64,000 nucleotides of DNA from Sphyrna mokarran (Eukaryota): the NCBI GenBank assembly GCA_024679065.1, contig JAGIQG010000040.1:10292001-10356000 (forward strand). The letters run 5' to 3'. Below the pieces are notes generated by a model. That model ran no database searches. It had not been told where the DNA came from and was given only the letters and a program-made list of their open reading frames with translations. The stretch's first letter is position 1; the number at the start of each line of letters is the position of its first letter. Of this stretch, positions 1-48,547 are shown one piece after another. A program made the position numbers and the translations under genes.

Positions 1-900
1 TACACACACACACACACGAACACATATATACGCATGTACATGCACAATTGACATGCACTTGTACAAACAGGCAGGAAAGCAACATGCGCTCAAATAATCA
101 CGTATACAAAAACATACACATATGGAAATGCAAACACACAAGTACACAAACACACACACACACACACAAAAAAAAAATATGCGAATAAGTACATAGGACC
201 AACTCAAACAGATACATGTATATTCACATTACAGACAGATGCACATGCATGCAGATCCACATACATACAGTTAGATAAACACGTTATCAGGATTATAGGT
301 ATAGAGACACGTAATGTTCTGCACATTAACACTCAAACATGGAAAATACATATAAACACATTAACATCTGCACATAGATGGCCAGAGTCAAACTTCTACA
401 CGCAAAACAAGCTTATACAGAACGCAACACCATAGCACACATGGAAACATAAACATACATCAACACATCGTTATGAAGAGCTAGCAGCAGATATATACAT
501 ACACTAACAAGTTAACAGACATGCATACAATCAGACGGAGGAACAGACGCACAGAGAATGGGAAGAAAACCATCCTCGTGTGACAGAAATTAACACGTTA
601 AATAGGCATGATCACATGCACACATTGTGAGTGGAATTAGTAAATATGCATAGATTTCACACAATGAGAACCATATCGCCACGTTGTCAGCAGAATAAAA
701 TGTACACAGATGCAGACACACAACTACACAATTCAACAAGCACAGGCAAATGAACACATTCATTAACCCTCATACACACACATTAACGCAGGACCAAAGG
801 TTAATGCAGACCACGAGATGCTCATGCATAAGCATACAAACACAAATTGCACCGATAAACACGTTGAAAAACTAAATTTAAGCTAATGATCTACTAACCA
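1..900. repeat. CA-rich low-complexity intronic DNA (CH4-TM intron of the left IgM cluster)
   Basis: CA/ACAC-rich sequence; inverted homolog of ~46500-47450, which lies in the CH4-TM intron of the right cluster. Confidence 0.7.
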
Positions 901-1320
901 TTTCCACCACCAATGAAAAAAGATCAGAAATTACATCCAGCTCTTAAACAGCAGCATTCACAATTTACAGATCAGTCACCATCTGTGAAAACAATCATTG
1001 ATCAGTGAAATTTTCCTGATATCACTCATAAGATTCTGCTATAAGGAATAGTGGCAAACAGTTCAAAAATGAACTGACACTCAAGAAAACATCTTCAATG
1101 TTTTTGACATGGACTGTCCAAGGAATGTACATAAAGATCAGGTGTGAAATTACGGAGATCGGTTATTGAGTGCCCTGAATTTAACAGTAGATATACAATG
1201 AAAATTATACAACAGAATAAATTAACCGTTTATGAAGGAGAACGGGGAAAGAAAAGTAACAATAAGATTCCCTGGATAAATAAAGCAATCTAATTTCATT
1301 TCCCGGCCTCCCTCCTCTAG

Positions 1321-1457
1321 ACTCTATCGACCCCAACTGGATTAACGACAATGAGGATGATAACAGCAACACCTGGACAACTGCTTCCACATTCATCGTC
1401 CTGTTCTTCCTGAGCATTTTGTACAGTACTGCCGTCACTCTGGTGAAGGTGAAATGA
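1321..1457 (+). CDS. ighm: IgM-type heavy chain transmembrane/cytoplasmic exon of a neighbouring cluster (rest lies left of the window)
   Basis: Acceptor cctccctcctctag|; phase-1 translation [45 protein letters not shown], with the conserved antigen-receptor TM motif and KVK tail. Confidence 0.92.
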
Positions 1458-2070
1458 TCCAATTTACTCACATTTCAATCTGGCAGAATGAATTTGAAAA
1501 ATCTCAGAATCTTTCACTGATTAAGAACCCTAACTTTAATGTCCCGCATCATCAGCATCTGCTTCATTCTTGTATCTTTCTTTTACAGGTCAAGTAATGA
1601 ATTGATTTCTGGACGCTGTAGATTCACCACATCTGATAATCCAAACCTCAGAATGACACAAATACAATATCTACTCTTGGTGACTCTATTAGAAAAATTC
1701 TCTCAGTTTTTCGTTCTGAATCTGTAACTGGTGCATTATAGACGTTATTTCAGTTTTCAGTGTAAAATGTAAAATGAGGCATGTTTTTGTTATAATGTAA
1801 TTGTGGTTAATAGTTTGCCCCTAGTTTACATATCATGTATTAATAAGAAACCTTTATCATTCCTTATTCACATTTGTTAATTCCTCGTTCTAATAAGATT
1901 CTGTTTTCTCTTCCTCGTGTATGTAACAGATGTACAAATATTGACGGATTCCCTGTACGTGTTCTGTTCTCAATGTGAAGCTCGATCGTTATGTCACTTT
2001 TCTAACTTTAAAAAATAATTTCGCTGTAAAATATTCTCTGATTTTTTAAAATATATATATATATATATAG

Positions 2071-2076
2071 AATAAA
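2071..2076 (+). terminator. polyadenylation signal of the left membrane-IgM transcript
   Basis: AATAAA ~610 nt after the stop codon; conserved at the equivalent position in the paralog (44416-44421). Confidence 0.65.
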
Positions 2077-3049
2077 ACTTCAACCATCTCTAGCTTGGTT
2101 TAATTCCGTTCTCCAAATCCCATCCACTCCACTCCATTTTCCCGATTGTACGGTTTCCCCCCTTTTCCCAGTCATGTGTGAAATGTGGTCGGACGCAAGG
2201 CCGTTCAGTGAAAGAGTCACTCTGTCATCCAGTGGCCAATCTGTGTAAAGACACTTTCATCTCAGCGTTTTTCTGATAAAACCCAGAGACAGAATGAGTG
2301 AAGAATGAGGAGAATCTCGGTGATTTCACTCATAAACTAGTCTGCCGCTGACCGAGTTTCAGCTAACTCTAAACAGCTAAGATTTTTGCTTCATCAGAGG
2401 CCGACGCAGGGTACTGTGAGGCAGCAGATATTTTCCTTTACACTGCCCCTTTAAAACACTATCAGAATCGCTGCAGCGTGGGTTAACAGTGTGAATCTCT
2501 ACATTTCGTCCGATGAAATACGTATAAGGCAGGAATACTACAAGATAGAAAACACATACAGAACAGAGATGCAAACCATGAAGTGAAACCAACAGACTGA
2601 TGTGTATTTTACATAAGTGCATAATAGATTACAAATTTCCAAATTATGACTAGTGTTATGGGATAATTTGAGGTGACCAATACTGTCTTTAACTACAGAC
2701 AATATAAAACTCACGAGGCAGATATTTCTGTGTAAGGACGGAACATTTATTTAAAACCTAAACACAACAAGCGGCTGCTTGGAGTTGACAAAAAGGGTTA
2801 AGTGGCTCTGGGAATACAGCGGCAGGTCCTTTCCATTGAATCTAATGTGTACAATCAATAACAGATCAATTACAGATTTTCTTATCGATCATTCCCGCCT
2901 CATATTAGTTTAAAAACCAATTACGTTCAGTAAGCATACATCAGTAGTAATTGCTGACAGGTTTCTCAGCCAATGGATCTCCTTCATCCATTTAAATCGG
3001 AGGCTGACTCATCTGTAATCAGTACCTGGGAGAATCAGGAAGATGAAAT

Positions 3050-3345
3050 AGAGTCAGAATTACAGAGGTTTATAGCATGGAAGCAGGCCCTTCGGCTCAA
3101 CATGTCTATGCCGGCCTTTTTAAATTAATAAACTTTTCGTCCCAATTGCCCACTTTTGGCCCATAATACTCAATAGTTATCTTACACATGTAACTCTCTA
3201 AGCGCTTTTGTTAAGACAAAATCGCATCCTCCTCTGCTACTACTTCTGGCAGCTTGTTCGAGACACTCACGACCATTTGTGTGAAAAAAATGTCTCTCTG
3301 GATCCTTTTATGCCTCTCTCCTCGCACCTTAAACTAGTTTAAACT
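3050..3345 (-). mobile_element. CR1/HER1-like LINE 3' fragment shared with the paralogous copy at ~42700-43408
   Basis: LINE 3'-tail motif (gaagcaggcccttcggc) at the same position in both halves of the inverted duplication. Confidence 0.55.
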
Positions 3346-3726
3346 CCACTGCATTTGATCACAACAATTTAAATTCCCTTTGTTTTGCTATTTATATGTG
3401 ACACCTCTGTCACTCACTCCACACTCACACCCCTCACCAGTGCATTCTAAATATCGTCCTAATTTCTTTGGCTTCAGCTCTGACCAATGGTCATCCAGAC
3501 ATCAAACGTAAACTCTATTCACTGTTTACAGGTGTTTTCAGGCTTGTTGAGATTTTCCAGCATTTTTTATTCTTGTTTCAGATTCCATAACAGCAGTAAA
3601 TTTCATTATATCAAGAGACACTTATCAGACAGACTTGTCCCTGGTTTACAAAAAAAAACCCGCTGAAGTAGAAACAGAATCCCAAATTCGCATGGCTAGA
3701 TTGGACTAAAGTTTTTGCAAGCAGTT

Positions 3727-3783
3727 TCTCTGGTGTTTTTTAATCGGCGCTTTTATGCAGCAGTTCGATTCCCGGTCAGGGAA
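3727..3783 (+). pseudogene. decayed tRNA-Glu
   Basis: 5' tctctggtg, tcggcgcttt and 3' gttcgattcccggtcagggaa match tRNA-Glu; internal deletions. Confidence 0.55.
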
Positions 3784-3949
3784 ATATTGTTTTGTTGCAG
3801 CACATGGTTGAAGTGGAGTTGGAATTACTTTCTGATCGAAAACATGAGTGACATTGCTGTCAGTTTGAAGAGCAGGGAGAAAAAATACATTCTATAATCC
3901 CGTCAATTACACACTTCAATGTATATTTGCGTCGGCTCTTTTGATTCCT

Positions 3950-4235
3950 CCAGAAGGAGGCCGTTCGGTCCATCGAGTCCGCACTGACAACAATCCCACC
4001 CACGCCCTATTCCCGAAAACCCACATATTTTCCCTGCTATTCCTGCTGGTACTTGGGTCAATTTAGCATGGCCAAACAACCTAACCCACACATCTTTAGA
4101 ACGGAAACGGGGAGCACCAGGAGAAAACCAATTCAGGCACGGTGAGAACGTGCAAACTGTGCACAGACGGTGACCCGAGAAATTTAACCTTATTCCTGGC
4201 GCTGTGAGGTATCAGTACTAACCACTATGCTGCCC
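3950..4235 (-). mobile_element. HE1-like tRNA-derived SINE
   Basis: tRNA-like head (taaccact...ctgtgagg), body gtgcaaact/ggagcacc and CR1-type tail (aggccgttcggtcc). Confidence 0.65.
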
Positions 4236-5760
4236 TTTCTACTGCATTCAATTTTGCTGCAGCTTACTGTGTCTGAAGAACAATGTTACTATCAGCCTGT
4301 GATAAACCATCTTGTGGCAATTCTGCTGAACAATATTAAATTATCACCGTTAATGGATAGTTCCAATTTGGGTGTCGTTGCTTTTAAACTTTGCTGCATT
4401 TCTGGTGAAATCCAGCTCTCTCCATGTCTCTTATCATAGGAAGGAATTCAACTGGAGGGGAGGGAACTGATCACCAGTAGCCCAGCGATCCAATACTTTC
4501 TACTCAATCATCAATAACACCATTCACAGTTGCATCTCATTTCAAATACTGTGATCCATTTCCCTCTGGATTTGTTCCAAGATTTAATATTTTTTCTTGC
4601 ATTCTTCTAATTTCGACGTAAGATTCGCTTCAATATACAACACAGGTGTATATACAACATAAATGGAAGTACAAACCTGAGGCTAACCGTGGGAAACAAG
4701 TCACTGGATAACACAAATCCATGCTGCTCATTTCCAGATTCACAACACTCAGCTTTCAATCTGATTGTACAACTTACCCCGAACATCAAAATTTAAAGCA
4801 TTCGTCTTGCAAATATCTAAGGGAGCAATGATTTCCAACCATTCCATGATTCTCGTCTTCCTTCGAATAATCTCAATCAGTTGTACTCAGTAATAAAAAC
4901 AAATTACTACGGATGCCGGAACCGGCAACGAAAAAAGGAAAACTCTGGCATGTCTCGCAAGGTCTGGCAGTATCTATAAGGAGGGAAAGGAGCTAAAGTT
5001 TCGAGTCGAGATGACATTTTGTCAAAACTCATTGTACAATCGTACTCAGTATTTGTTTCACTATTTAGTATCAATATATTATTTAACACATTATTAAATG
5101 GCTTATGTCTAGAATTGAACATCACAGAATTGCAAACGTAACTGACCAACAAAATGAATCGAGTCACCGGGTAATACAGATCGCAATTTTATGACTGAAC
5201 AGTCAGCTTTTTTTAAGTCAACTAGATCAAAATGGAAGTGATTTAAGAATTATCTGTTGGTGACCCTTGAGCCTTTTTTGTTATGGACGTGAAACATTCA
5301 GGCACATAAATTCCTTTATAGGAACATCAAGTAGGTCCGCACTGAGTATCGAATACCTCATCTGTCAGAATGGTTTTTCCTGTTTCTTAGTGGTGAAAAA
5401 AGAGATTTACAAAAGATTTTTATTAGAAATGTGCGTTATTTCCTCCAGTTCAATTATAGTATCACTTGTATCTGTCTGTTTGAGCACACTCTACTATCAG
5501 ATATTTCAGATGGTGATTAACCATATTAGTCTGCACCCATAAACCCAATAAATTCTGTTGTAGACTGAACGAGGTGCGAAGATGTGATCGGTGTCAAAAT
5601 CGAACTTTCCTGTTAAATAAAACATCAAATAAAAAGTGTTCATTATTTCATAGAAATCATTTGAGGGTGAAGTCAGAGAAAAGGTAATATGCCTTTAACA
5701 TCGAGGTTCGGATAACGTTGAGCAACAAACAGATTTCTCGACATGAGAAAGCCTAATGCA

Positions 5761-5833
5761 TGTTTCTGCCTGGTTTCGAACCAGGGACCTTTCGCGTGTT
5801 AGGCGAACGTGATAACCACTACACTACAGAAAC
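5761..5833 (-). tRNA. trnav-aac: tRNA-Val(AAC)
   Basis: GTTTCTGTAGTGTAGTGGTTATCACGTTCGCCT-AAC-ACGCGAAAGGTCCCTGGTTCGAAACCAGGCAGAAACA; 73 nt with intact stems. Confidence 0.93.
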
Positions 5834-6129
5834 AGCTTGAAGTACGTTGCAGCGAATCTGGTTGTCTGCAATATTCAACAACGCTGTGTTGCTGCAGGTT
5901 CCCATGGTTAGACTGAGAGCCCCTGTCAGTGAATTCAGGAAGATAACCGTTACTTTCAATCGGATTGCACGCCTTATCCCGAACATGAAAATTTAAAAGT
6001 GTTCGTCTCCAAAATATCTGAGGGAGCAATGATTTCTGCCCATTCATTAATGGATCATTCTGATCTTACTCTGAATAATCTCAATCAATTGTACTCAGTA
6101 ATAAAAGCAAACTACTGCGTGTACTAGAA

Positions 6130-6193
6130 ACACTTTTGAACCAGGAAACTTTCGCGTGTTGGGAGAAAGTGATAACCACTTCATTACAGAGAC
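6130..6193 (-). pseudogene. decayed tRNA-Val(AAC) in a tandem duplicate
   Basis: Many substitutions, 3' acceptor strand lost; shares flank with 5761-5833. Confidence 0.7.
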
Positions 6194-6407
6194 AGCTGGA
6201 AGCAAGAAACAGCAACCCTGCCTACCTGCAATGTTCAACTGCGCTGTGTTGCTGCAGGTTCCAATGATTAGACTGAGAGCCCATGTCACTTAATTCAGGA
6301 AGATAATCGTTATTTTCAATCTGATTGAACATCAAAATTTAAAAGCGTTGGCCTGGCAAATATCTAAGGGAACAATGATGTTTGCCCCTTCATTAACGCG
6401 TCATTTT

Positions 6408-6815
6408 CATCAGCGCACTCACACTAAGAGAAGCCATTCATCTATCCCCAGTGTGGGAAGCGATTCACTCAGTCTTTAAGCTGCTGACACATCAGCAGAT
6501 TCACACTGAGAACAGACTATTCATCTGCTCTGAATATGGAAAGGGATTTGCGCGACCGTTCCACCTGCTGACACACAAGTGCGTTCACACTGGGGAAAAG
6601 CTATTCACCTGCCCTGAGTGTGGAAAGGGATTTATTGATCATCCCCATGTGCTGATACATCAGTGAGTTCACACCAATGAGAGACCCTTCTCCTGCTCCG
6701 AATGTGGGAAGGGATTTATTAATTCATCTACTCTGAAGGCAAACCAGCAAATTAACACCGTGGAGAAATCTTTCACATGCTCCACATGTGGAAAGTGCTT
6801 TGTACGATCATAAAG
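6408..6815 (+). pseudogene. C2H2 (Kruppel-type) zinc-finger gene relic
   Basis: [16 protein letters not shown]-type repeats, in-frame TGA at 6664-6666, frameshift at the start, truncated by a LINE. Confidence 0.8.
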
Positions 6816-6835
6816 TATTTTGTTCGATCATAAAG

Positions 6836-8612
6836 AATGGCCAGGGTGAGGTTAGGGCCAGTCAAAGATAGTAGTGGGAACTTGTGCATGGAGTCAGAAG
6901 AGATAATTGAGGTGTTGAATGAATACTGTTCTTCAGTGTTCACTAAGGAAAGCAGCCATATTTTTGAGGAAGAATGTGTGATACAGGCTGATAGGATGGA
7001 AGAGATATATATTCTGAGGGAAGATGTATTCGCAATTTTGAAAAGCCCGAGGGACGATAAGTCCCTTGGATCAGATGGGTTACATCTTAGGATACTTTGG
7101 GAGGCAAAGAATGAGATTGCAGAGACTTTAGCTTTGATCTTTGGTCCTCACTGTTCACATTGATAGTGCTAGAGGACCGGAGAGTGGCAAATGTTGTTCC
7201 GCTTTTCAAGAAAGGAAATGGGAATTACCCTGGTAATTATAGGCCAATTAGTCTTACTTCTGCAGTTGGTAAGTTAATGGAAAGTGTCCTTAGAGATAGA
7301 ATTTATGACCATATGGAAAGATTCAGTTTAATCCAGGATAGTCAGCACGGTGTCGTGAGGAATAAGTCCTGTCTCACAAATTTGATTGAATTCTTTAAGG
7401 AGGTAACTAAGTGTGTGGACGAAGGTAGAGCTGTTGATGTTATTTACATGGATTTTAGTAAGACGTTTGATAAGTTTCCTCATGGTAGGCTCATGAAGAA
7501 GATACGGAGGTGTTGGATAGGAGGAACTTTGGCCAATTGAACAAGTAACTGGTTGTAACATAGAAGACAGAGGGTGGTGGTGGAGGGAAAGTTTTCAAAC
7601 TGGAGGCCAGTTACTTGCAGTGTACCACAGGGATCAGTCCTGTGTCCTCTGTTTTCCTGTGATTTTTACCAATGACTTGGAAGAAGAGACTCAAGGGTGG
7701 GTTAGTAAATTTGCTGACGACACCAAGATTGATGGAATTATGGATGAGATGGAGGGCTCTTGCCGGCTGCAAAGAGATATTGATGGAATGTAGAGCTGGG
7801 CTGAAAAGTGGCAGATTCAGTTTAAACCTGATAAGAGTGAGGTGATTAATTTTGGTAGGACAAACTGGAATGCAGATTACAGGGTCAACAGCAGGGTTCT
7901 AAGGAATGTGGAGGAACAGAATGATCTTGGGATTCATATCTACAGATCACTGAAAGTTGCCAATGAAATGAATAGAGCTGTAAAGAAGGCTTACAGTGTG
8001 TTAGTGTTTATTAACCGGGGGGGTTGAGTTTAAGAGCCATGGGGTTATGCTGCAACTATACCGGACGTTGGTGACACCACATTTGGAGTATTGTGTGCAG
8101 TTCTGGACACCTCATTATAAGAAGGATGCGGAAGCATTGGAGAGAATGCAGCGGAGATTTACCAGGATGCTGCCTAGTTTGGAGGATGGGTTTTATGAGG
8201 AAAGGTTGATGGAGCTGGGACTTTTCTCTTTGGACTGGTGGAGGCGACTTACTGGAGGTTTATAAGATGATGAGAGGGATTGATAGAGTAGACGTGCAGA
8301 GAATACTTCCTCGCGTCAATGTAGCGTGTTACTAGAATTCATAAACATAAGGTTCAAATATGGTGGGAGATATAGGAGGGATGTCCGAGGTACATTCTTT
8401 ACTCAGAGAATGATTGGGACGTGGAATAGGCTGCCTGCTATGATCGTGCAGTCGGATACTTTAGGAACTTCCAAGAGGATATTGGATAGGCAAATGGAGC
8501 ACTCCAGAATTATAAGGAGGAAATAGCTTGACCTTCTATCCGGACATAGAACGGCACAACGTTGAGGGCCGAAAGGCCTGTACTCTGCTGTAATGTTCTT
8601 TGTTTCTATGTT
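6836..8612 (+). mobile_element. degraded CR1/HER1-like LINE (RT domain to 3' tail)
   Basis: NYRPISLTS, VIYMDFSK, FADDT and LEYCVQFW motifs across frameshifted ORFs; tgttct tail. Confidence 0.9.
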
Positions 8613-8793
8613 TGCCGATGGTGCAATGTGGAGGTACCAAACAATGAACGAATCTGTTTGTTCACCGGCCTGTAACTAAGGTATAGGTTCCAACTTAATT
8701 AAACCTCTGGAGACACTCACTTAGAATAAATGTGGGACACAATGAAATCACCGCTAAACTCAGGTTAAACTTCATTTCAATTGTTGGGAGAGG

Positions 8794-8863
8794 ATGCATG
8801 GACCAGCAAAAGGTATCTTCTTCGCCATTTCTTATCCCATTCTCGCTGTCATTGGTGTTCCTG
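8794..8863 (+). CDS. GPR139-like GPCR gene A, exon 1
   Basis: MHGPAKGIFFAISYPILAVIGVP, matching exon 1 of paralogs B and C; donor is G|GCAGGT rather than GT. Confidence 0.7.
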
Positions 8864-10074
8864 GCAGGTGAAAAATCCCAAATCATTCTCATGACTTGAA
8901 GTGTATGGCGTTGCATAAACATTAACATTTTATTGTTGAACATTCAGTTTTATTCCAATGTAGTAAAATGCGATCCAGTGTTTTCAGTATTGTGCAGAAT
9001 AAAGTCTATAATGTGGCCTGTATTTCATCCACTAAGTATGCACAGTCTCAGAAAAATAAGTTATTGCAATCTAATAATTCAATTAGATGCATTGACATAG
9101 AGCTTACATTTAGTGGTTACATGAAACGATGTTGCGAACTCCAGCAGTTTATAATTGTTGATCTGTAGTGAGGTGGCAATGAGCTGCCCACATTGTTACT
9201 GAGATTTTAAAAATTAAGAATCAATTATTGAAACTTTTGAAAAAAGGTGAGGGGGTTATGCATATGCATTTTGTCTTCTGTTAGTAAGACTGGTAAATTT
9301 CCAGTAATTATATTTTTAATCACTAGATGTAGATATGGCAAGGCGAATATATCTTATCCATGTCCAGCTTTCATTTGAGAAGGCGATGAGGTGTTTGTTT
9401 CTTCAGATATCCGGATAAATAGAATGGGGACACTTCACAAGGCTTTCCAAATTAACTTTATACTGACAGACAAAATGTCTTTGAATTTTTCAACGAATTT
9501 ATTTTCTGAAGATCGTCCTGAAGCACAAGGGAAAGTTTAGTCTTTGAAAGAAGGGCTACCAGAGGTTAGAGTCTTAGCAGGAAAGGCAAATTGAAAATCG
9601 GGGCATTGAAGTCCACACTTAGAGATATGGTGTGACCTCAGTTAGTTGTAGCATGTTACCAACATCTGGAACGGCGAGATGTTGGAGGGGTTTAAAATTT
9701 GAAGGGCGAGATTATAAAAACAGACGCTGCCTGAAGGAGGGCTGATAGGGCTGATAGGGCTGATGGATGGATGGGATTAGTACGAAGAAGAATAGTGAGA
9801 GTATATTTTGGGAGAATCTGAAATTTGATAGTTATCAGAGGGGATCAACTCAGTGACCAGAGCGCAGAGATAAAATTTGGCCTGATTGCCCCTAATCTAA
9901 AATAACTTTAATCCAGTTTTGAATTTAGTGCCATTGCCAAACTTTGCAGTCAATGGAGAGTGGAGTTGGGAACATGAAAGATGGGGTCGTTCTCAGTAAC
10001 TGATTGGATAGAGCAGCAGTTGGTGTTTACAGGCCTCTCAGTAACACCTCTCTCTGTTTCTTTCTATCTCACAG

Positions 10075-10964
10075 CCAACTTGGTGACGATCGTAATCTTA
10101 TCCCGAGGACGGTGCGGGCTGTCACGGTGCATCATCTACTATCTTATCGCAATGGCATTGACTGATTTCCTTGTCATCATCACTGCCGCAATCCTCAACA
10201 GGATTGGCCGCATCTACTTTCAGAACAGCGTCCTGTCTCACATCTCCGGATGTACATTCAGCAATCTGCTGGTCTATTTTACCCGGGATGCGTCCGTCTG
10301 GTTGACAGTGGCTTTCACCATCGACCGTTTTGTGGCCATCTGCTGCCAGAGGCTAAAGACCAGATACTGTACCGAGAAAACAGCATTGCTGGTTATAGGA
10401 ATAGTCTGCATCCTGAGCTGTGTCAGGAATGTCCCTTTCTACTTCGCTTACCAGCCCTTGTACACCCTGGACGGGGTTCCCTGGTTCTGTGTTTTTAAGT
10501 TCAGTTATTACATACTGCCCGCCTGGCAGGCCTATGACTGGCTGGATAGCATCTTTACTCCATTTCTCCCGTTCCTCCTCATCCTGCTTCTTAACGCTCT
10601 GACCGTTAAACACATCTTAGCGGCCAGCAGAGCTCGCAGGAGACTCCAGGGCACGGAGAGTCACGGAGATCCAGAGATGGCCAACTGCAAGAGGTCTATC
10701 ATCCTGCTCTTCGTCATCGCCCTCAGCTTCCTCCTCCTCTGGGTCACCTACGTCATACACTTCCTCTGTGTGTGGATTACAGGTGAGGGTTACCACACCA
10801 GCCTGGATTTCAAAGACCCACGGTACATCTTTCAGGAAAGAGCAAACATGCTTCAGGTAGTCAGTTCCTGTAACAATGTCTTCATCTACGCAGTCACCCA
10901 GACCAAGTTCCGAGAGGACATGAAGAAGGTTCTGCTATGGCCCTTCAGCAAGTTCACTGGCTAA
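10075..10964 (+). CDS. GPR139-like class A GPCR gene A, exon 2
   Basis: Acceptor ctcacag|; ANLVTIVILSRGRCGLS, WLTVAFTIDRFVAIC, SSCNNVFIY; open to stop; 319 aa when joined to exon 1. Confidence 0.9.
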
Positions 10965-33520: not shown

Positions 33521-34431
33521 TTATTTTCTCGGAATAATTATTTTAGTAATAAGGTTCAGTGAACATTGGAGAGCATATTTCAGCTCTTCTCTGAATTTCT
33601 TCTGAATGGCTGCGTAAATAAAGGTGTTAGTGCAGGAACTAAGAAGCTGCAGCATGTTCCCGGCTTCCTGGAGAATAAATTTGGGATCACTGAAGCTTTT
33701 AATGTTATAATCGTTGGTGATTCGTACATGCAGGAACTGTATAACATACGTCATCCACAACAGGATGAAACTGCCAGAGATTGTGAAGAGTAAAATGATG
33801 GACTTTCTCCGGCTCTCCATCTCGGTGTCAGTCTGATTCTCTCTGCCTGTTTCAGTACGGAGTCTCCTCCTGGCTCGGCTGGCTGCTAGAATGTGTCTGA
33901 CGGTCAGAACATTTAACAGGAGAATCAGAAGGAAGGGAGCACACGGGGTCAATATACGGTCAAACCAGTCGTATGCTGTCCAGAACAGCGAAGTATACCG
34001 GATGTCCTTCAGTCTGCAATACCAGGGCACATTGTCAACCACGTAAATAGGCTCGTGGATAAAGTACCACGGAATATTTGTTAAACAGCCCAGCGCACAC
34101 ACTGTCCCTATCACAATCGCCGCAGTTTTCTCGGTGCAGTATTTTATTTTCAGCTTCTGGCAGCATATTGCCACAAAGCGATCAAAGGTAAACATGACTG
34201 TTAACCAGACAGAACTCACTCTGGCTGCATAAGTTAGGGCAATGCTCAGACTACAGATTGGGGTGATGGACAAGACGCTGCCTGGAAAATAAATGCCACT
34301 GATGCGATTTAATATCACAGCGGTGATAATGACCAGTAGATCTGTCACATTCATGGAGATAAGGTATCGAGTGATACATCCCGACAGACCACATTTGCCT
34401 CTTGACAGAATCACAATCGCCACTAAATTAG
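33521..34431 (-). CDS. GPR139-like class A GPCR gene C, exon 2
   Basis: Acceptor ttaatgcag|; ANLVAIVILSRGKCGLS, FTFDRFVAICC, SSCTNTFIY; open to stop. Confidence 0.92.
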
Positions 34432-36129
34432 CTGCATTAAAGAGAACGAGAATTAATTTGCACGGGAAAACCACACTAAAATAATCTCATTGACCAAAAT
34501 GTATGGACTCTTATTTTCTGCGTCTGAAGAGAATTTTTGGGACTGAAGAAAGAAAAGCTGGTTTAATAATGTGAAGATGGAAGACATCACGGATGGAAGA
34601 AGTATATTCTTAATCATCAAAATTGATTATCCGTTTCTCCAATTTCCCCCATCGTTTTCCCCTGTCACCGCACACATTTCCTAATCACATGATGAGTCAT
34701 AAAATGGGGACAATTAGAAAAACTGAACTGATCTTGCAGGAAAAAAGAACTTCTGTGCTGCAACAATTCGAATATAAACGTGAACATAGAACACACATGT
34801 TATTGTAAGAATTGGAATAAAATCACAGATAAACCCTGTATCGTATATTGGCACAGTGTGAATGCTATAATACCTGTAGAGCATGGGATTAGCATTTTCC
34901 ACAGTTTAGCTCACTTAGTTAAACTGATGCAATCTTTCTAATTTTATTCTTTCATCTGCACTGATTAGGATATAACTTATCTTTGTCAAGACATTTTGAT
35001 GGGTGATTTTTTACACTGCATCTTCGCAGCCAATTATATTTCGGGTCAATCGTTGAAGTGCCAACAGAATCCTAGCAAGAAACGAACACTCATACTCTAT
35101 GATTTCTAATGGTTTCTCTTATGTTTGCATTCTGTGTATTGTAGCTCCGCCAATTTCGCAGAATGGCAGAATTATTACAGCTCAGCACGATGCCATTTAT
35201 CACAAACACCAGCCACTCGCAGTGTAAACAGCATTTCCTTAAATCAATTTTGCTGGTTTCATGAATGCTGTTCCCTATATTGTGCGATGTTTTTGCTAGT
35301 GGAAACAACTTCTCCACAACCAATACATCCAGAACGGTTATGACATTGAAATTTATTCCCAAACATTTATGAAGCTTTACTTCAATTCCAGAACCTTTAA
35401 CTTGACGTGTTATGCACTGTTAGGACTCTAAGCAAGTTTTTTTTGGTAAACTCCATAACAAATAACTCCTATAGATATTAAAAGTGCATTACTGCGGATG
35501 CTGGAACCAGAAACCAGAAGAGAGCACACTGAAAAATTTCAGCACGTCTGGCAGCATCTGTATGACGAGAAAAGAGCTGAGGTTTCGAGTTCAGATGACA
35601 ATTTGTCAAAGCTTTTTTTTTTATCAAAACAAACTCTTTACCGATAAATATCCCCGTCTCCAGCCCCTTAGCCGCTGCTTCATTAAATCAAATGAGGTTT
35701 GTCTGGGATGACTTAACGCTTTAGGAAATCATGTTCTGAGTTAATTCACCTCTTCTGCCCCTTGCTCTGGGCATCTCCACTAAAATGAACTGTTTCTTCC
35801 CCACAGATCTTTCAAACCTTTACTAATTTTTATCAAAGCCGTTAACTAGTTCTTTGATCTTATCTATGGAATATACAACAAATGAGATTTAAGTAACCGT
35901 TCCTGAGAATTTACTATCGAAGCCTTGGTATCGTTATGGCGAATTTACGTTCCAACATTTTTGAATGCCAAGTCTATCCTTCATACGGTGACTTGGCAGA
36001 AAAAGAATATATTGCTCTGAACGGGCCCAACCAGAGTTGAATAGAATGTCAGATATCTTATATCCTTTTGTGCACAGTATCCTTGAGTTGCATTCAGTAG
36101 ACAACGAAGAATTAATTTTGATGCATTAC

Positions 36130-38372: not shown

Positions 38373-39184
38373 TGGACGGAGAAGTGGCAGATGGACTTCA
38401 ATGCAAATAAAGGTGTAGTGGTCCATTTTGGCAGGAATAACGGGATGAAGGAGTACAATAAAAGGGGTAGGAGCCTTAGCTGTGTTATAGAGCAGTAGGA
38501 TCTCGGGGTCCGGGTCCATAGGACTCTTAAATCAGCCTCGCAGTGGAGGAAGTGGTCAAGAAGGCGTCCGGTGTACTGGCCTTCATTAATCGAGGAATAG
38601 AGCTTAGGAGTCAGGAGGTAATGATGCAGCTCTATAAGACTCTTGTCAGACCCCAGTTGGAGTATTGTGTGCAGTTCTGGTCGCCCCATTATAGGAAAGA
38701 TGTAAAGGCTATTGAGAGGGTTCAGAGGAGATTTACAAGGATGCTGCCTGGATTGGGAGGCAGGCCTTATGAAGATAGGTTGAGGGAGCGGGGACTCTTC
38801 TCACTGGAGAGACATAGGTTGAGAGGCGACCTGATAGAGGTTTATAAAATGTTGAGAGGAATAGATAGGGTGGACTATCAGAGACTATTTCCCCGAGCTG
38901 AAATGGTCAGTATGAGAGGACACAGATTTAAGGTGCAGGGAAGCAAATACAAAGGAGATGTCAGGGGTAGGTTTTTCACTCAGAGGTTGGTGAGTGAATG
39001 GAACCGACTGCCGTCAGAGGTTGTTGAGGCAAACTCACTGGGGTCTTTTAAGAGACTCCTGGATGAGTATATGGAAAAGAATAGGATAGGGGGTTATAGA
39101 TAGGTCTGTGGATTGGTAGATGTGATCGGCGCAACTCGTGGGCTGAAGGGCCTGTTTGTGCTGTATTTTTCTATGTTCTATGTT
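38373..39184 (+). mobile_element. 5'-truncated CR1-like LINE
   Basis: 186-aa ORF with LEYCVQFWSPHYRKDVKAIERVQRRFTR; tgttcta tail. Confidence 0.9.
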
Positions 39185-42100
39185 AAAGCCAACTAAACTC
39201 CGAATGCCTGCTAACTCACTATACAAGAACCTCAACATGGATACTGCCTGGGTTATCCACGATCCTGAAAACAATTAGCTGGGAAAATCATAAGCTTGTG
39301 TCTCTGTTCTCATCTGTTCTTGGATACACAGAAGCAAGTTTTACAGAGACTTTTTTTTTACAGAAATCTTAATATTACAAAGTTCATTAACCCGTTCCCT
39401 GCTTCAACTGGTACATAAGAAGGAGGATAGCTTTAGTTCACTGGAGGATAGAACTGGCTGGCCAGCTGAGCTGATCTATTGCAAACGGCTTCAGCTGCTG
39501 AGTTGCTGCATCAACCCTTTCATTTATGCAGGGCCCCAGAGCAAATTCAGGGAAAAGTTAAAGAATGGGGTGAAATATCCTTTGTTTCTAATTGGTAAAT
39601 TATATAAGAGATGAAAAGAATAAAATCAAACATCATTTTAACATTGTAGTCCCCCTGGTCTGATTTGTGTCCATGGACTCACTTCCTATATGCATGTTCT
39701 CTCTCTCTATAATCCTGACTAACACAGCGAATTCATGAATGTTTAATAATATTGTGCCCAAAGCATATTGTCCATTCTCAATTATTTTCAAGTTCAGTTG
39801 TTCATGATGAGTTTGGTCTTGTGCTTTCCCATCGGTTTTGGTTTGCCTCTGAATTTTTCATTCATATGAGGAACGTAGAACAGGACCTCTGATGAGCAAG
39901 TGGATGTCAAATTTAAATGTTTATTAATTCCACTTAGTTCCTTCCAAGGAACAGTTTGGACATTCAGTGCATGGCAGACTCGAAACAATCACTCCCTGAA
40001 AACGTTTGGATAATAATGCTGATTTTTGGAAGAATATTCTTTATAAAACAAAACATTACCAAAAATAAATATTATACAAGCATAATACTATATTCAATGT
40101 TGGCTGCACACGCCAGAATTTTGTCTTATCGCATCCTCAGCGTTTGATTAGACTGTTGTCCGAAAACCAACCATTCAGCAACAGGCCGATAGGTTAGACA
40201 AGATTCACTCCAGTGGTGGAGAATGTTTGGAACCATTGGACCAAATTCAAATGCTATCTCCCTCCCCAAACAAAGATGTACGTGTCACATTTCATGTCTC
40301 CAATTCCACACACAATATTTCCCAGAAGTCTGTGCTTTAAAGTAATGTTTAATTTGAATGGTCAGTATCAATTTTAAAGATCTCCTCTCTGTTACTCACA
40401 AATAACTATTGATTTCACATCATGGCATGTGAATTTCCCACGAGAAGGTTGCGTGCATCCTCCAGATCACTTAACAGGGAAATTTTGCATATTTTTACCA
40501 CAGTTCGTCCAATTAGATAGAACAAAGAACAAAGAACAAAACAGAACGGGAAACAGGCCCTTCGGCCCAATGAGCCCGGGCCGCCACCACGATGTTCCCA
40601 TCTCTACCCGCGATCTCTGTCCATGTTTATAAATCTATGGATTAAAAACCAAATTTGAGACAATTGAGGGAGAATTTGTTTTGCCAATTAGCCTAAGAGC
40701 ACATCTTCGGGATGTGGGAGGAAACCGGAGCTCCCGGAGAAAACCCACGCAAGCACGGGGAGAATGCGCAAACTCCCACAGATATTGCAAAATGGAGAGT
40801 AAACTATCATTGCACCTTCCTTGCTGTCAGGAGAACTGGTGCAATGTGTATTATTTGCCTTTAGATACGAGTCAAATCTCTCCCCTAAGCTATGTGTTGC
40901 GTTTTATTCTGTCTTCAGTTAGGAGCTATAATCTTCTGCAATTTACAGAATTGAACACATTAATTTCAGTTCCATTGCTGAAGTAACTTATAACATGGCA
41001 TAATTACGTCATTTTACAGTCTCAATGTTGTCATTTGACTGCACCACAACGTCAGATGTCCATATTTATTGTAATGACTTACTGTCAATCAGAAACCATT
41101 GATGCCTCATTTTTCCTGAAAATTACCTTTTCTTTGTCTCCTATGACTTGTTTCAGAATTATTGATTGCATGTGACATGACAAGCGCTTCTGCACATTTA
41201 ATAGAATCAGTCCCTGATCTGTCCAATTTCTAAGTGTTTTTTTTCTCTCTGTTTCGTTTTATGCTTTCAGTATCGTGATCTATCATCTCCGGTATGTTTT
41301 CTTGCTATACCTGCGATTGTCCTTTCGTGATCTACCCCGGAACAATTAGTTGCTGGACATTAATAGCGCATTTAATTTATTCTCTATTTTTGAGACACAT
41401 AGCACACAAATAATAATTCTTCCTTCCATAGTTGTATATTTTGATATCAATTAAATCACCTTTACATTGTGTGTTATCTCCGAGTAGTGTCAGCATACTT
41501 AGATAGGCAACTCTCTATTTCTTCACCACACGACACGCCTTTTTCAACTGAATGCATTTAATTCGTTTCCATTGCCTCCAGCGTGCTAAGTCTTTTGTTT
41601 GTTTGTCATTATCACCCTGGCAACCACTATACAAGCTAACGGCAGATATCCACCTATCTAACTGTTTTCGTCCTTGAACGCTGTAGTTGTTGTTAGAAGC
41701 ACAAGTTCATTGACAACACGGGGCAGTTTATGACTAACTCTTAATGGTCGTCTATCACTCATTCATATATGACTTAAATTCATAAAATGAATTTGGACTC
41801 AATTTAACACAATGGACTGAACTTAACACATACATGCTCTGCCGAGGAGAAAAATTAGAAAAGTGAACAAGTGTTCAAATCAGGACCAAAGAGCATTGCG
41901 AAGAAAAAGAGTAATGAAATGAACAAGTATATTGTAACACATCCGTTCTCGATGGGGATTGGCCTCCAATACTGATTAGATAAAAACACAAAAAGGCAAC
42001 AGCATAACTGCACGAATACGAAATATGTAAGTGGCGTGAGTATTCGTTATTGGAACAAACCAGGTTGTCATGATATGAAAAGGTGGAAGGAAAATATCAA

Positions 42101-42699
42101 GTTAAATAACTTAAAGTACAAAGCCATACATTTACGAATGAAATTTGAAGTAATCAGGGATCTGCTCCAATTGGTTTCCTCTGTGAATTTTATAATCATC
42201 CAGCAAAGAGATAGATAAACATTGCTGCTTTCCCGGGTGAACTCCAGCATCACAGCTCAAATTGAGACTTCCTCTATCCCGCTTAGTTAATCTCACAATG
42301 AAGTCAGATAGTTTAGCGTCTGATTCAGTGAGAAGTTTTCTTGACACTTAACCCGAGAGTTTTATCCAGAAATGAATAATATTTCTGTCAGTTTACACCG
42401 TTAAATCTGACCCATTACTGCGCAGATTTTACCTTGTATCACCAGCTCCACTGTTGCCACTTTGCATCTTTCACTGTCTGTGTTTGTTCCCATCCTCTTG
42501 CCCCTGTGACATTTCAAGTTCAGAAGAATACCTACATATTTTATTCCACTGATGCTGACAGAGTTGCTTTCGACCAGGAAGTATTTCAGGATTACTTATC
42601 AAAAATATTTTTTTTAACTTATCAAAACCAGACAGCAAGCCTGCAAGAGCCAAACACGAATCACTGGAGCACCAAGCTGGCAGGGAGTTTAGGAAAGTT

Positions 42700-43408
42700 G
42701 TAGAACATCGAGGTCTAGGGCAACATGGTCAGAGCTCATTGAAAATGGAGTCACAGGTGGACATGTTGTTGAAGAAGCCATTCGACATGTTTAGTTTCAT
42801 TGGCCAAAACATTGAATGCAGGGGTTCTACAAGACATTGGAATACTGTGCCATGGTATAACTCTGATAGTATTTTTACGGACGGTATGTTCTGGTCACCC
42901 TATTATAGAAAGGATATTATTAAACTAGAAGGAGTGCAGAAAATGCTTCCAGGATTTTCCTGGAAGCGAGGATGCTTCCAGGACTTGATGGTTTGAGTTA
43001 TAAGGACAGGTTGAAGAGACTGTTTTTTTTTCCCTGAGCATAGAGGGCTTCGGGATTATCTTATTGGCGTCTATGAAATAGTGTGAGGCATAAATCAGCT
43101 GGATAGTCAATATTTTTCCCGATTGTAGGGGAGTCTAAAACATAGGCTTAAGGCGAGAGAGAGAGATACAAAAAAGATCCAGAGGGGCTCTTTTCACACA
43201 AAAGTGTGAGTGTCTGGAACAATCTGCCAGAGGTATTAATAGAGGCGGGCACAATTTTGCATTAAAATCTCTTAGGCAGTCACATGAGTAAGATGGCTAT
43301 GGAAAGATACGGACCAAGGGCGGACAGTTGGGACTAGTGGGAAAAAGGCGTTATGGACATGGTCGGCCGAAAGGCCTGCTTCCATTCTGTAGACCTCTGT
43401 GACTCTAC
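42700..43408 (+). mobile_element. degraded CR1-like LINE
   Basis: FWSPYYRKDIIKLEGVQK fragment and 3' tail. Confidence 0.75.
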
Positions 43409-44415
43409 CAGATACTGATTACAAATGGGTCAGCCTCCGATTTAAATGGATAAAGGAAATATCATTATGCTGGGTTATAAAATGCGATTGACTGAGCAAC
43501 TTGTCTGGAATTATGATTGTGGAATATTTACTGAATGTAATTTATTTTTTAAACTAATATGAGCCGGGTATGATCGATAAGAAAATCTAGAGAATGAAAG
43601 AAAATGATAAGAAAATCTATAATTGATCTGTTATTGATTGTACACGTTAAATTCACTGGAAAAGTCCTGCCGCTCTGTTCCAGAGCCACTTATCCCTTTT
43701 GGTCATCTCTAAGCAACTGCTTGTTGTGTTTTTGTTTTAAATAAACCTTACATCTTTACTCAGATATATCTGCCTCGTTAGTTTTATATGTTCTGCAATT
43801 AAAGACAGTATTGGTGATTTCAAATTATCCCATAATACTCGCCATAATTTGGAAATGTGTAATTTATTATGTACTTACGTCAAAAACACCTCAGTCTCTT
43901 GGTTTCCCGTCATGATTTGCACCTCTGCTCTGTATATGTTCTCTTGCTTGTGGTATGCTTGTCTTTCATGTATTTCAACGGACGAAATATAGGGAGATTC
44001 ACACTGTTAACCCACACTGCAGCGACTCTAATCGTGTTTTTTTTAAAGGGGCAGTATAAATTAAACTATCTTCTGCCATACACTATCCTGCATCGGCCTC
44101 TGATGGAGCAAAACCTTTGCTTTTTAGAATTACCTGCAACTGGGTCAATGACAGAATAATTTATGAGAGAAATCACCAAGGTTTTCCTTATTCTTCATTC
44201 GTTTTGTCTCTGGATTTTATCAGAAACAAAGCAGAGATGAATGTGCATTTACACGGACGGCTCACCTGGTAGCGCAGTGACTCTTCCACTAAAGGCGGGG
44301 GGAACATGCCTGCCTGGGAAAGGAGGGGTGGTGGGGGGCGGGGTAATAGGGAAAATTGAGCAGAGGTGATAGATTTTGGAGAACGGAATTAAGCCAAGCC
44401 AGACTTGGTTAAAGT

Positions 44416-44421
44416 TTTATT
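44416..44421 (-). terminator. polyadenylation signal of the right membrane-IgM transcript
   Basis: AATAAA at the position equivalent to 2071-2076. Confidence 0.6.
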
Positions 44422-44970
44422 CGATATTTATTTTAAAAAATTCAGAGAAAATTTTACAGGGATTTTTTTTTTAAAGTTCGGAAGATGAATACAACGATCC
44501 AGAGAACAGAACACATGCAGAGGGAATCCATCAATATTTGTACATCTGTTACATACATCAGAAAGAGAAAATAGGACCCTGAGAGAAAGAGGAATTAATA
44601 AATGGTATAAAGAATGAAAGAAAATCTTATTTATACAAGATATTTAAACTAGAAGAAAAGTAATAACCGCAATTACATTATAACACAGAAATACTTCGTA
44701 CTTTTCACACTGAAAACTGAAATAACGCCTATAAATAGACTCAGTTACAGGTTTAGAAGATAAACTGACATAATTTTACTGACAGAATGACCGAGAGCTG
44801 ATATTGCATTTGAGCCATACAGAGATATTGATAATCAGCTGAGGGAAATCTGCAGGGTCCAAAATTCAATCCATCATTTGATCTGTAAAAGAAAGGTACA
44901 ATATTGAAGCAGATATCTATGATGCCGGACATTAACGTTAGAGTTTTTAATCAGAGAAACATTGAGAGAT

Positions 44971-45920
44971 AGAACATAGAACATAGAACATTACAGCGCA
45001 GAACAGGCCCTTCGGCCTTCGATGTTGCGCCGACCAATTATGAAAAAAGCAATGACCCTCCAAACTAAACCATTCCCTTCTCTTCCATAAACTTATCAAC
45101 GAACCTCTTAAACGCCACCAAACTTGGCGCATCTACAACTGCCGCAGGCAGGGCATTCCACTCCCTAACCACCCTCTGGGTAAAGAACCTCCCTCTGATA
45201 TCCGTCCTATAACTATCACCCCTTAATTTAAAGCTGTGTCCCCTCGTGCTAGCTTTCTCCATCCTAGGAAAAAGGCTATCACTATCCATCCTATCTAAAC
45301 CTCTAATCATCTGATATGTTTCGATAAGGTCTCCTCTTAGCCGCCTCCTTTCTAACGAAAACAACCTCAAATCCCTCAGCCTCTCTTCATAAGACCTGCC
45401 CTCCATACCAGGCAACATCCTGGTAAACCTCCTCTGTACCCTCTCCAATGCCTCCACATCTTTCTTATAATGTGGGGACCAGAACGCACACAATACTCCA
45501 AGTGCGGCCGCACTAGAGTTTTGTACAGTTGCAACATGACGTTGCGGCTCCGAAATTCAATCCCCCTACCAATAAAAGCTAAGAATCCGTATGCCTTCTT
45601 AACAACCTTATCGACTTGATTGCCAACTTTCAGGGATCTATGCACATATACACCAAGATCCCTCTGTTCTTCAACACTATTAAGAGTCCTACCATTAGCC
45701 CTATACTCTACACATTTGTTATTCCTGCCAAAGTGAATTACCTCACACGTTTCCACATTAAACTCCATTTGCCACCTCTCAGCCCAGCTCTGCAACTTGT
45801 CCAAGTCTCTCTGCAAACTATAACGCCCCTCTTCACTATCTACCACTCCACTGACTTTAGTGTCATCCGCAAACTTACTAATCCATCCGTCCAATCCAAA
45901 CTTACTAATCCAATCCATCC
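44971..45920 (-). mobile_element. young CR1/HER1-like LINE inserted in the TM-exon 3' UTR
   Basis: FADDTK and C-terminal motifs; absent from the paralogous UTR at ~1500; ATC on both flanks. Confidence 0.93.
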
Positions 45921-45965
45921 GATTTTCACATCCGTTCTGTCAGTTTGAAATGTGAGTGGATTGAA

Positions 45966-46102
45966 TCATCTCACCTTCACCAGAGTGACCGCAGTGCTGT
46001 AGAAAATGCTCAGGAAGAACAGGACGATGAATGTGGAAGCAGTTGTCCAGATGTTGCTGTTATCATCCTCATTGTCTTCAATCCAGATGTGGTTGGTGGA
46101 GT
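45966..46102 (-). CDS. ighm: IgM heavy chain transmembrane/cytoplasmic exon
   Basis: Acceptor ccccctag|; [45 protein letters not shown]. Confidence 0.92.
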
Positions 46103-48547
46103 CTAGGGGGTGGAGAACAGGCATTGAAATTAGATTACTTTATTTATCCAGGGAATCGTATTGTTACTTTTCTTTTCCTGTTCTCCTTCATAAGCTGTTA
46201 ATTTATTCTCTTGTATAATTTCCAATGTATATTTACTGTTAAGTTCAGAACACTCAGTAACCGATCTCTATAACTCTTTTCTCACTTGATCTTTGTTGAC
46301 ATTCTTGGGCAAACCATGTCAGAAATCACTGATGATGTTGTCTTGAGTATTAGTTCATACTGAACTATTTGCCACTAACCTTTATTAAAGGATATTATGA
46401 CTGATGGGGAGGAACCCTCACTGATCAATGACTGTTTCCACAGATGGTTACTGATCTGTAAATTGTGAATGTTGCTTTTTAAGAGATGGATGTAATTTCT
46501 GATCTTTTCCCATTCTTGGTGGAAATGGCCAATAGATCATCAGCATAAATGCAGTTTCTCAACGTGTTTGTCAATGCAATTTGCGTTTGTGTGCGTATGC
46601 ATGAGCATCTCGTGGCCTGCAACAAGTTTTGGTCCTGAATTAATACGTGTCTTTGAGGGTTAATGAACGTGTTCATTTGTCTGTGTTTGTTGATTTGCGT
46701 ATGTTTGTTGTGTGTGCGCGTCTGTGTACATTTTATTTTTCTGACAATGTGGATGTATTGATCTTATTGTGTGTAGCCTATGCATGTTTTGTATTGACAC
46801 TCACAATGTGTGCATACATTCATATCTATTTCAATGTGTTAATTTCTGTCACACGAGTATGGTTTCCTTCACATTCTGTGTACGTCTATTCCTCCGTCTG
46901 TTTGTATGAGTGTCTGTTAACATGTTAGTGCATGCATATCCGTGTTGATTGTTCTTCATATGTACATTTGTATTTCCGTGTATAGCAATGTGTTCTGTTT
47001 TGTATGAACATGCTAAAAAACATAAAGTTTTGCGTATAAACGTGTTGCTCTCTGTTCATCTGTGTGCTTTTAACGAATTGTGCATGCATATTTGCGTGTT
47101 CGAGTGTGAATGTGAAGGACATTTTGTGTCTCTGTATCTATATTCCTTCAGCGTGAGCGTGTGATAATATATTTATTTATTTGTGTGCATGTGTGTGTGT
47201 GTGTGTGGATCTGCATGCATGTGCATCTGTCTGCAATGTATGTAGTCATGTATCTGTTTGAGCTTTGGTCTGTCTACCTATTTGTGTGTGCATACATGTG
47301 TGTGTGAACTTGTGTGTGTTTTTTTCTATATGTCTGTGTTTGTACATATTGGATTATTTGTGTGCATGCTGTTTTCTTTCTGCTTGTTTGTACATATGTC
47401 CGTATTTGTGTACGCGTGTATGTGTGTGTGTGCATGCCTATATGCGTATTTATAATTATGGCACTTCTGCGCAGTATTGTCAGAGTGTGTATATTTTGTC
47501 TGTTGCTCCAATCACCGTAATCATTAACTGAACATCATCCAGTCAATCCGAATAATGGAGGACATTTTCAAAGTTTTACTGTATTAACTTATTTTATGTG
47601 AGAGGCATGGTGATATCAGGAGAGCGAATGAAATAATTCAATGATCCATCTCAGAAACATCAGGGACAGAACAGTGAAAACCGGGGAGAATTCTACCAGT
47701 TGTTTAAATTTGTATTATGGGAAATCAATGCCAGCACACGATTAAAAGGAACAGGAGTGTTGAAACTTTAAAAAAAAATATGTTGAGTAAGTAAATACAT
47801 ATAAAGATAATGATAATTCAAAATCCACCAAGCAACCCAGAAGCTAATTTGGACTGTTGGCAACTGAGTCCTTATAGTGGCGAGCTGATCCCTTCCAAAC
47901 ACTCTACTTGGGAGAGGGAAGAGAATGAGCTCAGAGTTTCCTCTCTCGACACGGTGAAGCAATGTCTCTGATGATTTTAACCACTGAGGAGGGGGAGGTA
48001 CAATGGATTAAATAATGACATTCCTCCTCTTTTCATTGAAGAAGTGGTGGTACATGGGTTAGTTATCGCTCCCCCCCTCTCTTTGTTGAGTGAGTAGGAA
48101 TCCGGTATGTTAACAATTTCACTCTCCCTCTCTCTGATGGGAGAAATTATTGCTCCATGTTTCTGTGTGCTCCTCATTTCAGTTCCCAATGGATGTGATG
48201 TGGCAGGTTAAAGCTGGCATCAATGGATAAAGACATGGGCAATGAGAGAAGCAGAAACAACAGAACTAAGTGTTGTGTTTGTCAGAAATGTTGAAATTGT
48301 CGGAATTTTCCTCAGAGGGAGGAAATTCGGTGAATTTGTTTTACAGAATCCTGTCATGAATGTGCTCTACTCTATCCCTAACCCAGCGTGTATCTGAGCT
48401 GTGCGCACTGGTTTATTAAAAATTAGGTCCAAGACCTAAAAATATCTGACTCAAACCAAAGATATGCAATGGAAGTAAAACTGAAAAAAAAACACAGTCA
48501 ATTAAGCGATTGGGTATTTCATTTATCGTTCGAGGAAAAATATTATT

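Follow-up and report, generated by a model that had tools for sequence, protein, structure and literature searches.

Two complete IgM miniclusters facing tail-to-tail in a mixed-orientation array of the shark Sphyrna mokarran

The window analyzed here, 64,000 nucleotides of Sphyrna mokarran DNA, covers the ground separating a pair of complete IgM miniclusters of the shark type, which point toward each other tail-to-tail, the left one intact and the right one carrying a stop codon in CH1. An initial annotation had seen in this arrangement a geometry for switching between clusters by inversion. The geometry is valid and the left cluster is no orphan, but the pair is not singled out by it, as the same holds for 50 of the 105 pairs of complete clusters in the array. 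The two miniclusters belong to an IgM array of mixed orientation, in which facing pairs likely arose from inverted segmental duplication and rearrangement and not from selection for switching. The layout recurs in the array; the left/right pair is one ordinary case of it and offers no evidence for a mechanism.

How do the two clusters face each other? Self-BLAST of the window aligned positions 60-1500 with 47394-45923 (77% identity, 1506 columns) and 1501-3353 with 44970-43124 (74% identity, 1931 columns), each match being to the minus strand. The left end of the window (60-3353, plus strand), which takes in the left cluster from its CH4-TM intron through the TM exon and UTR to the 3' flank, is thus an inverted homolog of 43124-47394, much as first annotated. 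The window contains no N, and the gap list has no entry within the two clusters or in the DNA that separates them; the opposite orientation is therefore not a scaffolding artefact. Positionally matching AATAAA motifs at 2071 (2071-2076, plus strand) and at 44416/44427 (44416-44432, minus strand) are candidate polyA signals for the left and right membrane forms, respectively. Their spacing of about 42.3 kb agrees with the ~42 kb proposed between polyA sites, but the distance relevant to switching, from J-C intron to J-C intron, is 59-76 kb. The LINE said to be shared by the two clusters is present as the end of the homology (3060-3353), in a stretch that resembles a LINE end; however, it adjoins TM in 8 of 16 clusters and is hence inherited cluster flank, not a mark of this pair. 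A LINE 3' fragment (~950 bp; 44970-45920, minus strand) is inserted directly after the right TM stop and is absent from the left copy. Elsewhere in the window are further LINE copies that match it at 93-94% identity, including one with PF00078.

Is the left TM exon (1321-1457, plus strand), which is intact and ends in VTLVKVK-stop, an orphan? Annotation of the DNA left of the window ruled this out by recovering a whole IgM cluster on the plus strand, with leader, V, D1, D2, J, and CH1-CH4 at window-relative positions -16591 to -1670 (contig C994 10275409-10290330). None of the 8 exons checked contains a stop, a frameshift, or a broken splice site, and the reading frame is open throughout, as in a functional IgM minicluster. 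The right cluster lies entirely on the minus strand, from 62645 to 45966. Its leader exon (62600-62645) is followed by an open VH with a 23-spacer RSS (62165-62469) and the CDR1 region NLDSDWLQ, then by D1 (61737-61748, 12/22 RSS), D2 (61342-61353, 12/12 RSS), and JH (60910-60948, 23-spacer RSS). Compared with most others, the J has lost 9 bp without a change of frame, a shortening that two paralogs share. A J-C intron of 8.7 kb (52215-60909) leads to CH1 (51915-52214), CH2 (50638-50943), CH3 (49415-49723), CH4 with a secretory tailpiece ending in NSCQ-stop and an internal donor for TM at 48642 (48581-48972), and an intact TM exon (45966-46102).

Both clusters therefore follow the plan of elasmobranch IgM miniclusters, with a single V, two D, and a single J in the same orientation (RSSs of 23, 12-22, 12-12, and 23), four C1-set exons, a secretory tailpiece with a penultimate Cys, and a TM exon. 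A protein search with CH4 returned seven matches, all Ig C-like and few of them named. Cmu chains lead the named matches for CH4, the top match being an IgG1/IgG4 hybrid. The anatomy agrees with the V-D-D-J-Cmu1-4-sec-TM order described in PMC5192425, PMC4279169, and PMC12227049, and here too the clusters are linked and numerous, with pseudogenes and one joined copy among them. Thirty-seven IgM clusters are given for the bamboo shark (excerpt of PMC8692893), and some nurse-shark clusters are placed >120 kb apart (section of PMC4279169), compared with 76 kb from J to J for the pair described here.

The defect claimed for the right CH1 is real in this assembly: codon 9 is TAA (52191-52189), a change private to 1 of the 30 CH1 copies, the other 29 reading TAC, and it breaks a frame that is clean in the other seven of eight exons. 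We looked for RSS defects as a further lesion and found none, the J heptamer being off at its last base only. The right cluster is probably still able to rearrange V-D-D-J, but CH1 would bring its message to a premature end. We infer that it is a young pseudogene. Among the rows listed, one presumed RNA run of 4 contig runs aligned to CH1-CH4 yielded IgM contigs with spliced joints, but these are paralogs at 90% likeness, assignable to neither cluster.

Could the stop be a sequencing error or a single allele, leaving a normal functional IgM gene in need of no rescue? That it is a single-base, private change among otherwise clean exons would fit such a reading; however, stops or frameshifts are frequent in the array, affecting 6 of the 15 complete clusters, as is expected of young pseudogenes, and the LINE that was inserted after the right TM is also found at a 99.5% copy, so the other private features of the right cluster are real. 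That copy is 35 kb long (C994 at 9,821,193) and may be a young duplication, one allele of an inversion polymorphism, or a duplicate made by the assembly. We regard an error or allele as improbable. It is less probable still that the right VDJ bypasses the stop by splicing from J to CH2, giving a CH1-less heavy chain from unchanged DNA. All junctions are of phase 1, so that the phases are compatible, and another CH1 stop is common to six of the eight amplified clusters of contig C1082, but the CH1 splice sites are intact and the right VH keeps GLEW, the ordinary motif on the side of the light chain.

How exceptional is the facing layout? We surveyed 1.46 Mb of array with 15 complete clusters. 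Five pairs of complete clusters stand tail-to-tail, with TM-TM distances of 23, 45 (the left/right pair), 62, 78, and 146 kb; one pair is thus tighter than that described here, and four of the five have no gap between partners. The 50 oppositely oriented pairs include head-to-head ones. Between 8.72 and 10.35 Mb, all six plus-strand clusters have a minus-strand cluster next (shuffle P = 0.037), and 11 of 16 neighbors overall are opposite in orientation (shuffle P = 0.057), which together amount to a slight excess of facing pairs in a test whose units are not independent: clusters arise by duplication, 2 of the 17 clusters counted are partial, searches alone covered 0.29 Mb inside the array, and c06, c09, and c15 share 98-99% identity, so that some of this set may be duplicates created in assembly.

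The spacer does not set the pair apart either. The stretch at 3354-43123 holds three rhodopsin-family GPCR-like loci, among them open frames with PF00001 profile matches at 9978-10964 (plus strand) and 33521-34486 (minus strand), together with 11 tRNA genes and LINE fragments. All of these are multicopy in the array, which contains 42 GPCR-like loci and 117 tRNAs, so the GPCR/tRNA block is redundant and gives the pair no distinction.

What, then, produced the facing pairs? Inverted duplication is visible at several scales. On C1082, eight clusters alternate strictly in orientation, and in the 160 kb read (four of the eight clusters) the inverted arms match one another at 96-98% identity. On C994, inverted duplicates are formed by c03 and c04 (90-91%), by c07 and c08 (26.7 kb, 97%), and by the 5' parts of c15 and the left cluster (16 kb, 95%). 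The left/right pair itself is not an inverted duplicate, which suggests an origin by later rearrangement. In all nine parts compared, the right cluster ranks 5th to 11th of 13-14 among the relatives of the left one, and their 3' homology runs at 75-89% throughout, with no near-identical patch along it; the two are distant paralogs whose sequences bear no germline trace of mutual exchange. Cluster parts in the array are mosaic in ancestry. Trees of VDJ, CH1-2, and CH3-4 are mutually rejected (AU p < 0.001), mosaic parts mostly have their best match in a cluster that is not a neighbor (e.g., c11/c13 TM at 97% and the polyA flank of c12 and the right cluster at 100%), and mosaic breaks elsewhere in the array fall in several introns, not in the J-C intron alone. 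A candidate V/C chimera break in the left J-C intron was rejected, since homology to c15 stops there at a repeat insertion with no clear crossover. Duplication with rearrangement would involve IgM clusters copied in inverted blocks, ectopic germline exchange that shuffles their parts, and point lesions that remove clusters, in a process of birth and death.

Where does this leave switching? When two clusters lie in opposite orientation on one chromatid, their J-C introns can be joined productively only if the DNA between is inverted, and to that extent the initial reasoning holds: an inversional swap of C regions at this pair is a valid but generic prediction. The stronger proposal is that AID breaks in both J-C introns invert 59-76 kb, swap the C regions, and put the right VDJ on the intact left C, the layout being kept for that purpose. 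In its favor are the real opposite orientation, the intact left cluster, and right V, D, J, and RSSs that appear usable. Inter-cluster switching in the nurse shark (Zhu et al. 2012, as cited in portions of PMC4279169, PMC4588147, PMC8201067, and PMC5192425) joins the VDJ of one cluster to the C region of another without switch regions and concurrently with hypermutation, and could be a candidate process here; it is reported to be two-way, and how it is directed is described as open (PMC4279169, in part). Work on engineered mouse cells found more inversional joins when transcription was opposite and the distance shorter (PMC13066422). Three of the five facing pairs combine an intact with a broken cluster, the pattern expected under rescue, but this is near the base rate of 6 in 15. 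Against the proposal stand the 50 of 105 pairs with the same geometry, the redundant spacer, and the missing germline trace; moreover, a reciprocal swap would hand the broken CH1 to the left VDJ, so intact VDJ-C units cannot increase. By established B-cell logic, a cell at the AID stage would already rely on another heavy chain, so that rescue would cost it its specificity or add a second chain. An intact partner on the same strand also lies 148 kb from the right VDJ, which could reach it by deletion. Switching is reportedly, in the work of Zhu and colleagues, independent of the linkage of the partners and partly between chromosomes, in which case local geometry would be a minor factor. We therefore hold rescue by inversion to be unlikely, if slightly less so than a sequencing error or allele, and duplication with rearrangement remains our preferred explanation of the layout.

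The introns themselves do not resemble switch regions. AGCT occurs at 3.34/kb in the right J-C intron and 2.63/kb in the left, against a background of 3.15/kb, and AGCT and WGCW are both near background; the right intron has a G-rich tract (about 53100-53620) that the left one lacks. Inversional class switching to an inverted IgA gene is already known in birds and reptiles (passages in PMC13066422, PMC3315531, and PMC4279169), where donor and acceptor are transcribed in opposite directions and can be joined only by inversion. The left/right pair shares this feature, its donor and acceptor C regions being oppositely oriented on one chromosome. However, the bird and reptile loci combine one VDJ with several C genes and switch regions, whereas here each cluster has its own VDJ, both are whole IgM units of the same isotype, and no switch region was seen; neither cluster is an acceptor C gene of another isotype lacking a VDJ. 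Teleost light-chain clusters, as outlined in part of PMC5192425, offer another likeness, being closely linked and of mixed orientation, with inversional V-J rearrangement, nondeleting exchange, and receptor revision, but there inversion is RAG-mediated at RSSs and here it would be AID-mediated in J-C introns. Our literature search, with most subscription journals outside it, found neither a paper on how shark IgM clusters are oriented relative to one another nor one on inter-cluster switching by inversion. Orientation may be visible in supplementary cluster maps of PMC12227049 or PMC8692893.

What would the array mean for switching in sharks? If AID-driven switching of the nurse-shark type operates here, any join linking two oppositely oriented clusters would be an inversion, as would apply to about half of the pairs in the array. 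Whether in mixed-orientation shark IgM arrays roughly half of the same-chromosome switch partners can be joined only by inversion, so that switching is largely reciprocal, nondeleting, and repeatable, is a speculative idea that we put at no better than one chance among several. The map of cluster order and orientation makes the direction of switching a matter of counting: junctions could be scored as inversion, deletion, or trans-chromosomal, by partner and distance, and the right cluster, with its private CH1 stop and distinct V, is a convenient marker. Germline mosaicism is a practical warning, because a "foreign" C region in a transcript can stem from a hybrid already present in the germline; claims of switching therefore require the complete array from that same animal. 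If the idea is true, inversion-based switching could explain the reported two-way character of shark switching, clusters whose C region is dead (5 of 15 here) could have their V genes expressed, and the germline V/C mosaic could be a long-term record of similar exchanges.

Is the facing geometry of these two IgM clusters particular to them? The left cluster (LEFT) lies on the plus strand, mostly outside the window, and the right cluster (RIGHT) lies on the minus strand inside it. The window contains 0 N, and self-BLAST bore out the inverted homology between two of its stretches proposed in the initial annotation: 60-1500 matches 47394-45923 (77%) and 1501-3353 matches 44970-43124 (74%), both inverted, the right copy alone being split by a ~950-bp LINE piece. 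Matching AATAAA sites of the two clusters are about 42.3 kb apart. The membrane (TM) exon of LEFT (1321-1457, +; reading [10 protein letters not shown]) is not an orphan without CH exons, since leader, V, D1, D2, J and CH1-CH4 are present on the plus strand left of the window, and 8/8 checked exons are open with canonical splice sites.

RIGHT, all on the minus strand, comprises a leader (62645-62600), V (62469-62165; Pfam V-set), D1 and D2 between V and J, J (60948-60910), CH1 (52214-51915; C1-set), CH2, CH3 and CH4 plus tailpiece between CH1 and TM (Pfam C1-set), and TM (46102-45966). The best matches to CH4 among solved structures include Cmu chains. Its CH1, earlier called defective, indeed carries TAA at codon 9 in the assembled sequence—a position that is TAC in 29 of the 30 CH1 copies compared (from 34 genome matches)—and the other seven exons are without lesion. 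Contigs matched to CH1-CH4 stem from many paralogs. The recombination signal sequences keep the spacers and CAC ends of paralogs, which suggests that rearrangement is probably possible. The array also has a V fragment upstream of RIGHT, as well as a number of TM exons that are orphan or doubled (contig JAGIQG010000040.1, hereafter C994: 10368316, -; 10384192, +; 10119115, +; 9251841, -).

The primary paper on nurse-shark switching is said to have found it independent of linkage. According to reviews, a nurse-shark VDJ can be expressed on the C region of a different cluster; this works in either direction, involves no switch regions and accompanies hypermutation (PMC4279169, PMC4588147, PMC8201067, PMC5192425). 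If switching of this type acts here, a productive LEFT-RIGHT join would have to invert 59-76 kb. The proposal that such a join inverts rather than deletes holds geometrically but is not special to this pair: 50 of the 105 pairs of complete clusters are oppositely oriented, head-to-head included. RIGHT has an intact same-strand partner at 148 kb. A reciprocal swap would, as suggested, free the right VDJ from its CH1, but the LEFT VDJ would then inherit the stop. Published work reports that inversional switching is a requirement in some birds and reptiles (PMC13066422, PMC3315531) and that, in engineered mouse cells, joining by inversion becomes more frequent with opposite transcription and short distance (PMC13066422); the prediction is therefore reasonable, not new in kind. 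LEFT-RIGHT inversional switching is, on sequence grounds, a partly supported and valid geometric prediction, generic to opposite pairs. We found no description of the relative orientation of shark IgM clusters in a literature search that covered the field's main journals poorly.

AID motifs are not enriched in the J-C intron of LEFT or RIGHT. At 53100-53620 (-), ~1 kb before CH1, lies a G-rich repeat with a decayed unit of ~20 bases, its sense strand being 40-46% G, and with no AGCT excess; it occurs in 9/15 J-C introns, is absent from LEFT, and matches 26 places in the genome, 25 of them at IgM clusters.

An inversion would also keep the intervening GPCR/tRNA block, as claimed. The spacer content is redundant: it holds 3 of the 42 GPCR-like loci and 11 of the 117 tRNA genes in the region read, and a 35.4-kb inverted copy covering the greater part of it (12421-47825), at 99.5% identity, lies 0.5 Mb away (C994:9821193-9856592). 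That copy also carries the RIGHT TM, LINE and polyA; its start is a sharp break within the RIGHT CH4-TM intron, and an assembly gap cuts it off at the end. Possible explanations are a duplication of very recent date, an allele left uncollapsed, or one junction of a heterozygous ~0.5-Mb inversion breaking inside an IgM intron. The spacer also contains a frameshifted GPCR-like gene (17079-18031, +) and a decayed fragment (6397-6801, +), labelled zinc-finger-like by eye from its translation.

How common are facing clusters? Searches with TM (40 of 124 candidates scored), V, CH1 and D-J found about 25 IgM clusters in both orientations on C994, 8 on a second contig (C1082) and a few more elsewhere in the genome. 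The stretches read (C994 8.70-9.50 and 9.79-10.446 Mb; 1.456 Mb in total) hold 17 clusters, 15 of them complete, ordered + - + - + - - + - - - - - + - + -; the 0.29 Mb between them gave no match in those searches. Stops or frameshifts affect six of the complete clusters and are absent from the other nine. Five tail-to-tail pairs of complete clusters occur (TM-TM 23, 45, 62, 78 and 146 kb), four gap-free between partners, and LEFT/RIGHT is the second closest. The next cluster after a plus one is minus in 6/6 cases (shuffle P = 0.037), and 11/16 neighbours are opposite (P = 0.057); these counts are non-independent because of duplication and possible assembly duplicates (c06, c09 and c15, 98-99% identical). 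This slight excess of facing pairs counts against reading the array as ordinary. Separately, in a divergent IgM-like cluster (C994:7404755-7419309) a mere 40 bases or so separate V from J, and its VDJ is therefore likely germline-joined.

Large inverted duplications link c03 to c04, c07 to c08 (97% over 26.7 kb) and, in their 5' parts, c15 to LEFT (95% over 16 kb). On C1082 (1-436136), the eight clusters strictly alternate, facing arms are 96-98% identical (160 kb read) and six share one CH1 stop codon, a layout that reflects either a palindromic amplification of recent date or an effect of the assembly. LEFT and RIGHT as a fresh inverted duplicate are ruled out: across nine parts compared, 13-14 relatives of LEFT could be ranked, and RIGHT came between 5th and 11th, and their 3' homology, 75-89% in 200-column windows, contains no near-identical patch. 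Trees of VDJ, CH1-2 and CH3-4 from the 15 complete clusters (two partial ones left out) reject each other (AU p < 0.001), which indicates germline exchange of cluster parts, with breaks in several introns and mostly among non-neighbours. Mosaic clusters (C994:8.72-10.36 Mb) include c08, with c04-type VDJ and CH3-4 and RIGHT/c12-type CH1-2; c12, a c13-type VDJ joined to a RIGHT-type C; and c11, with RIGHT-type VDJ-CH1 and a c13-type TM.

We consider it quite probable that the window belongs to an IgM array of the ordinary birth-and-death type, whose facing pairs would have come from inverted duplications followed by rearrangement, with RIGHT a young pseudogene. More speculatively, and in our view doubtfully, mixed orientation across the array would mean that switching in sharks often proceeds by inversion and can be repeated.
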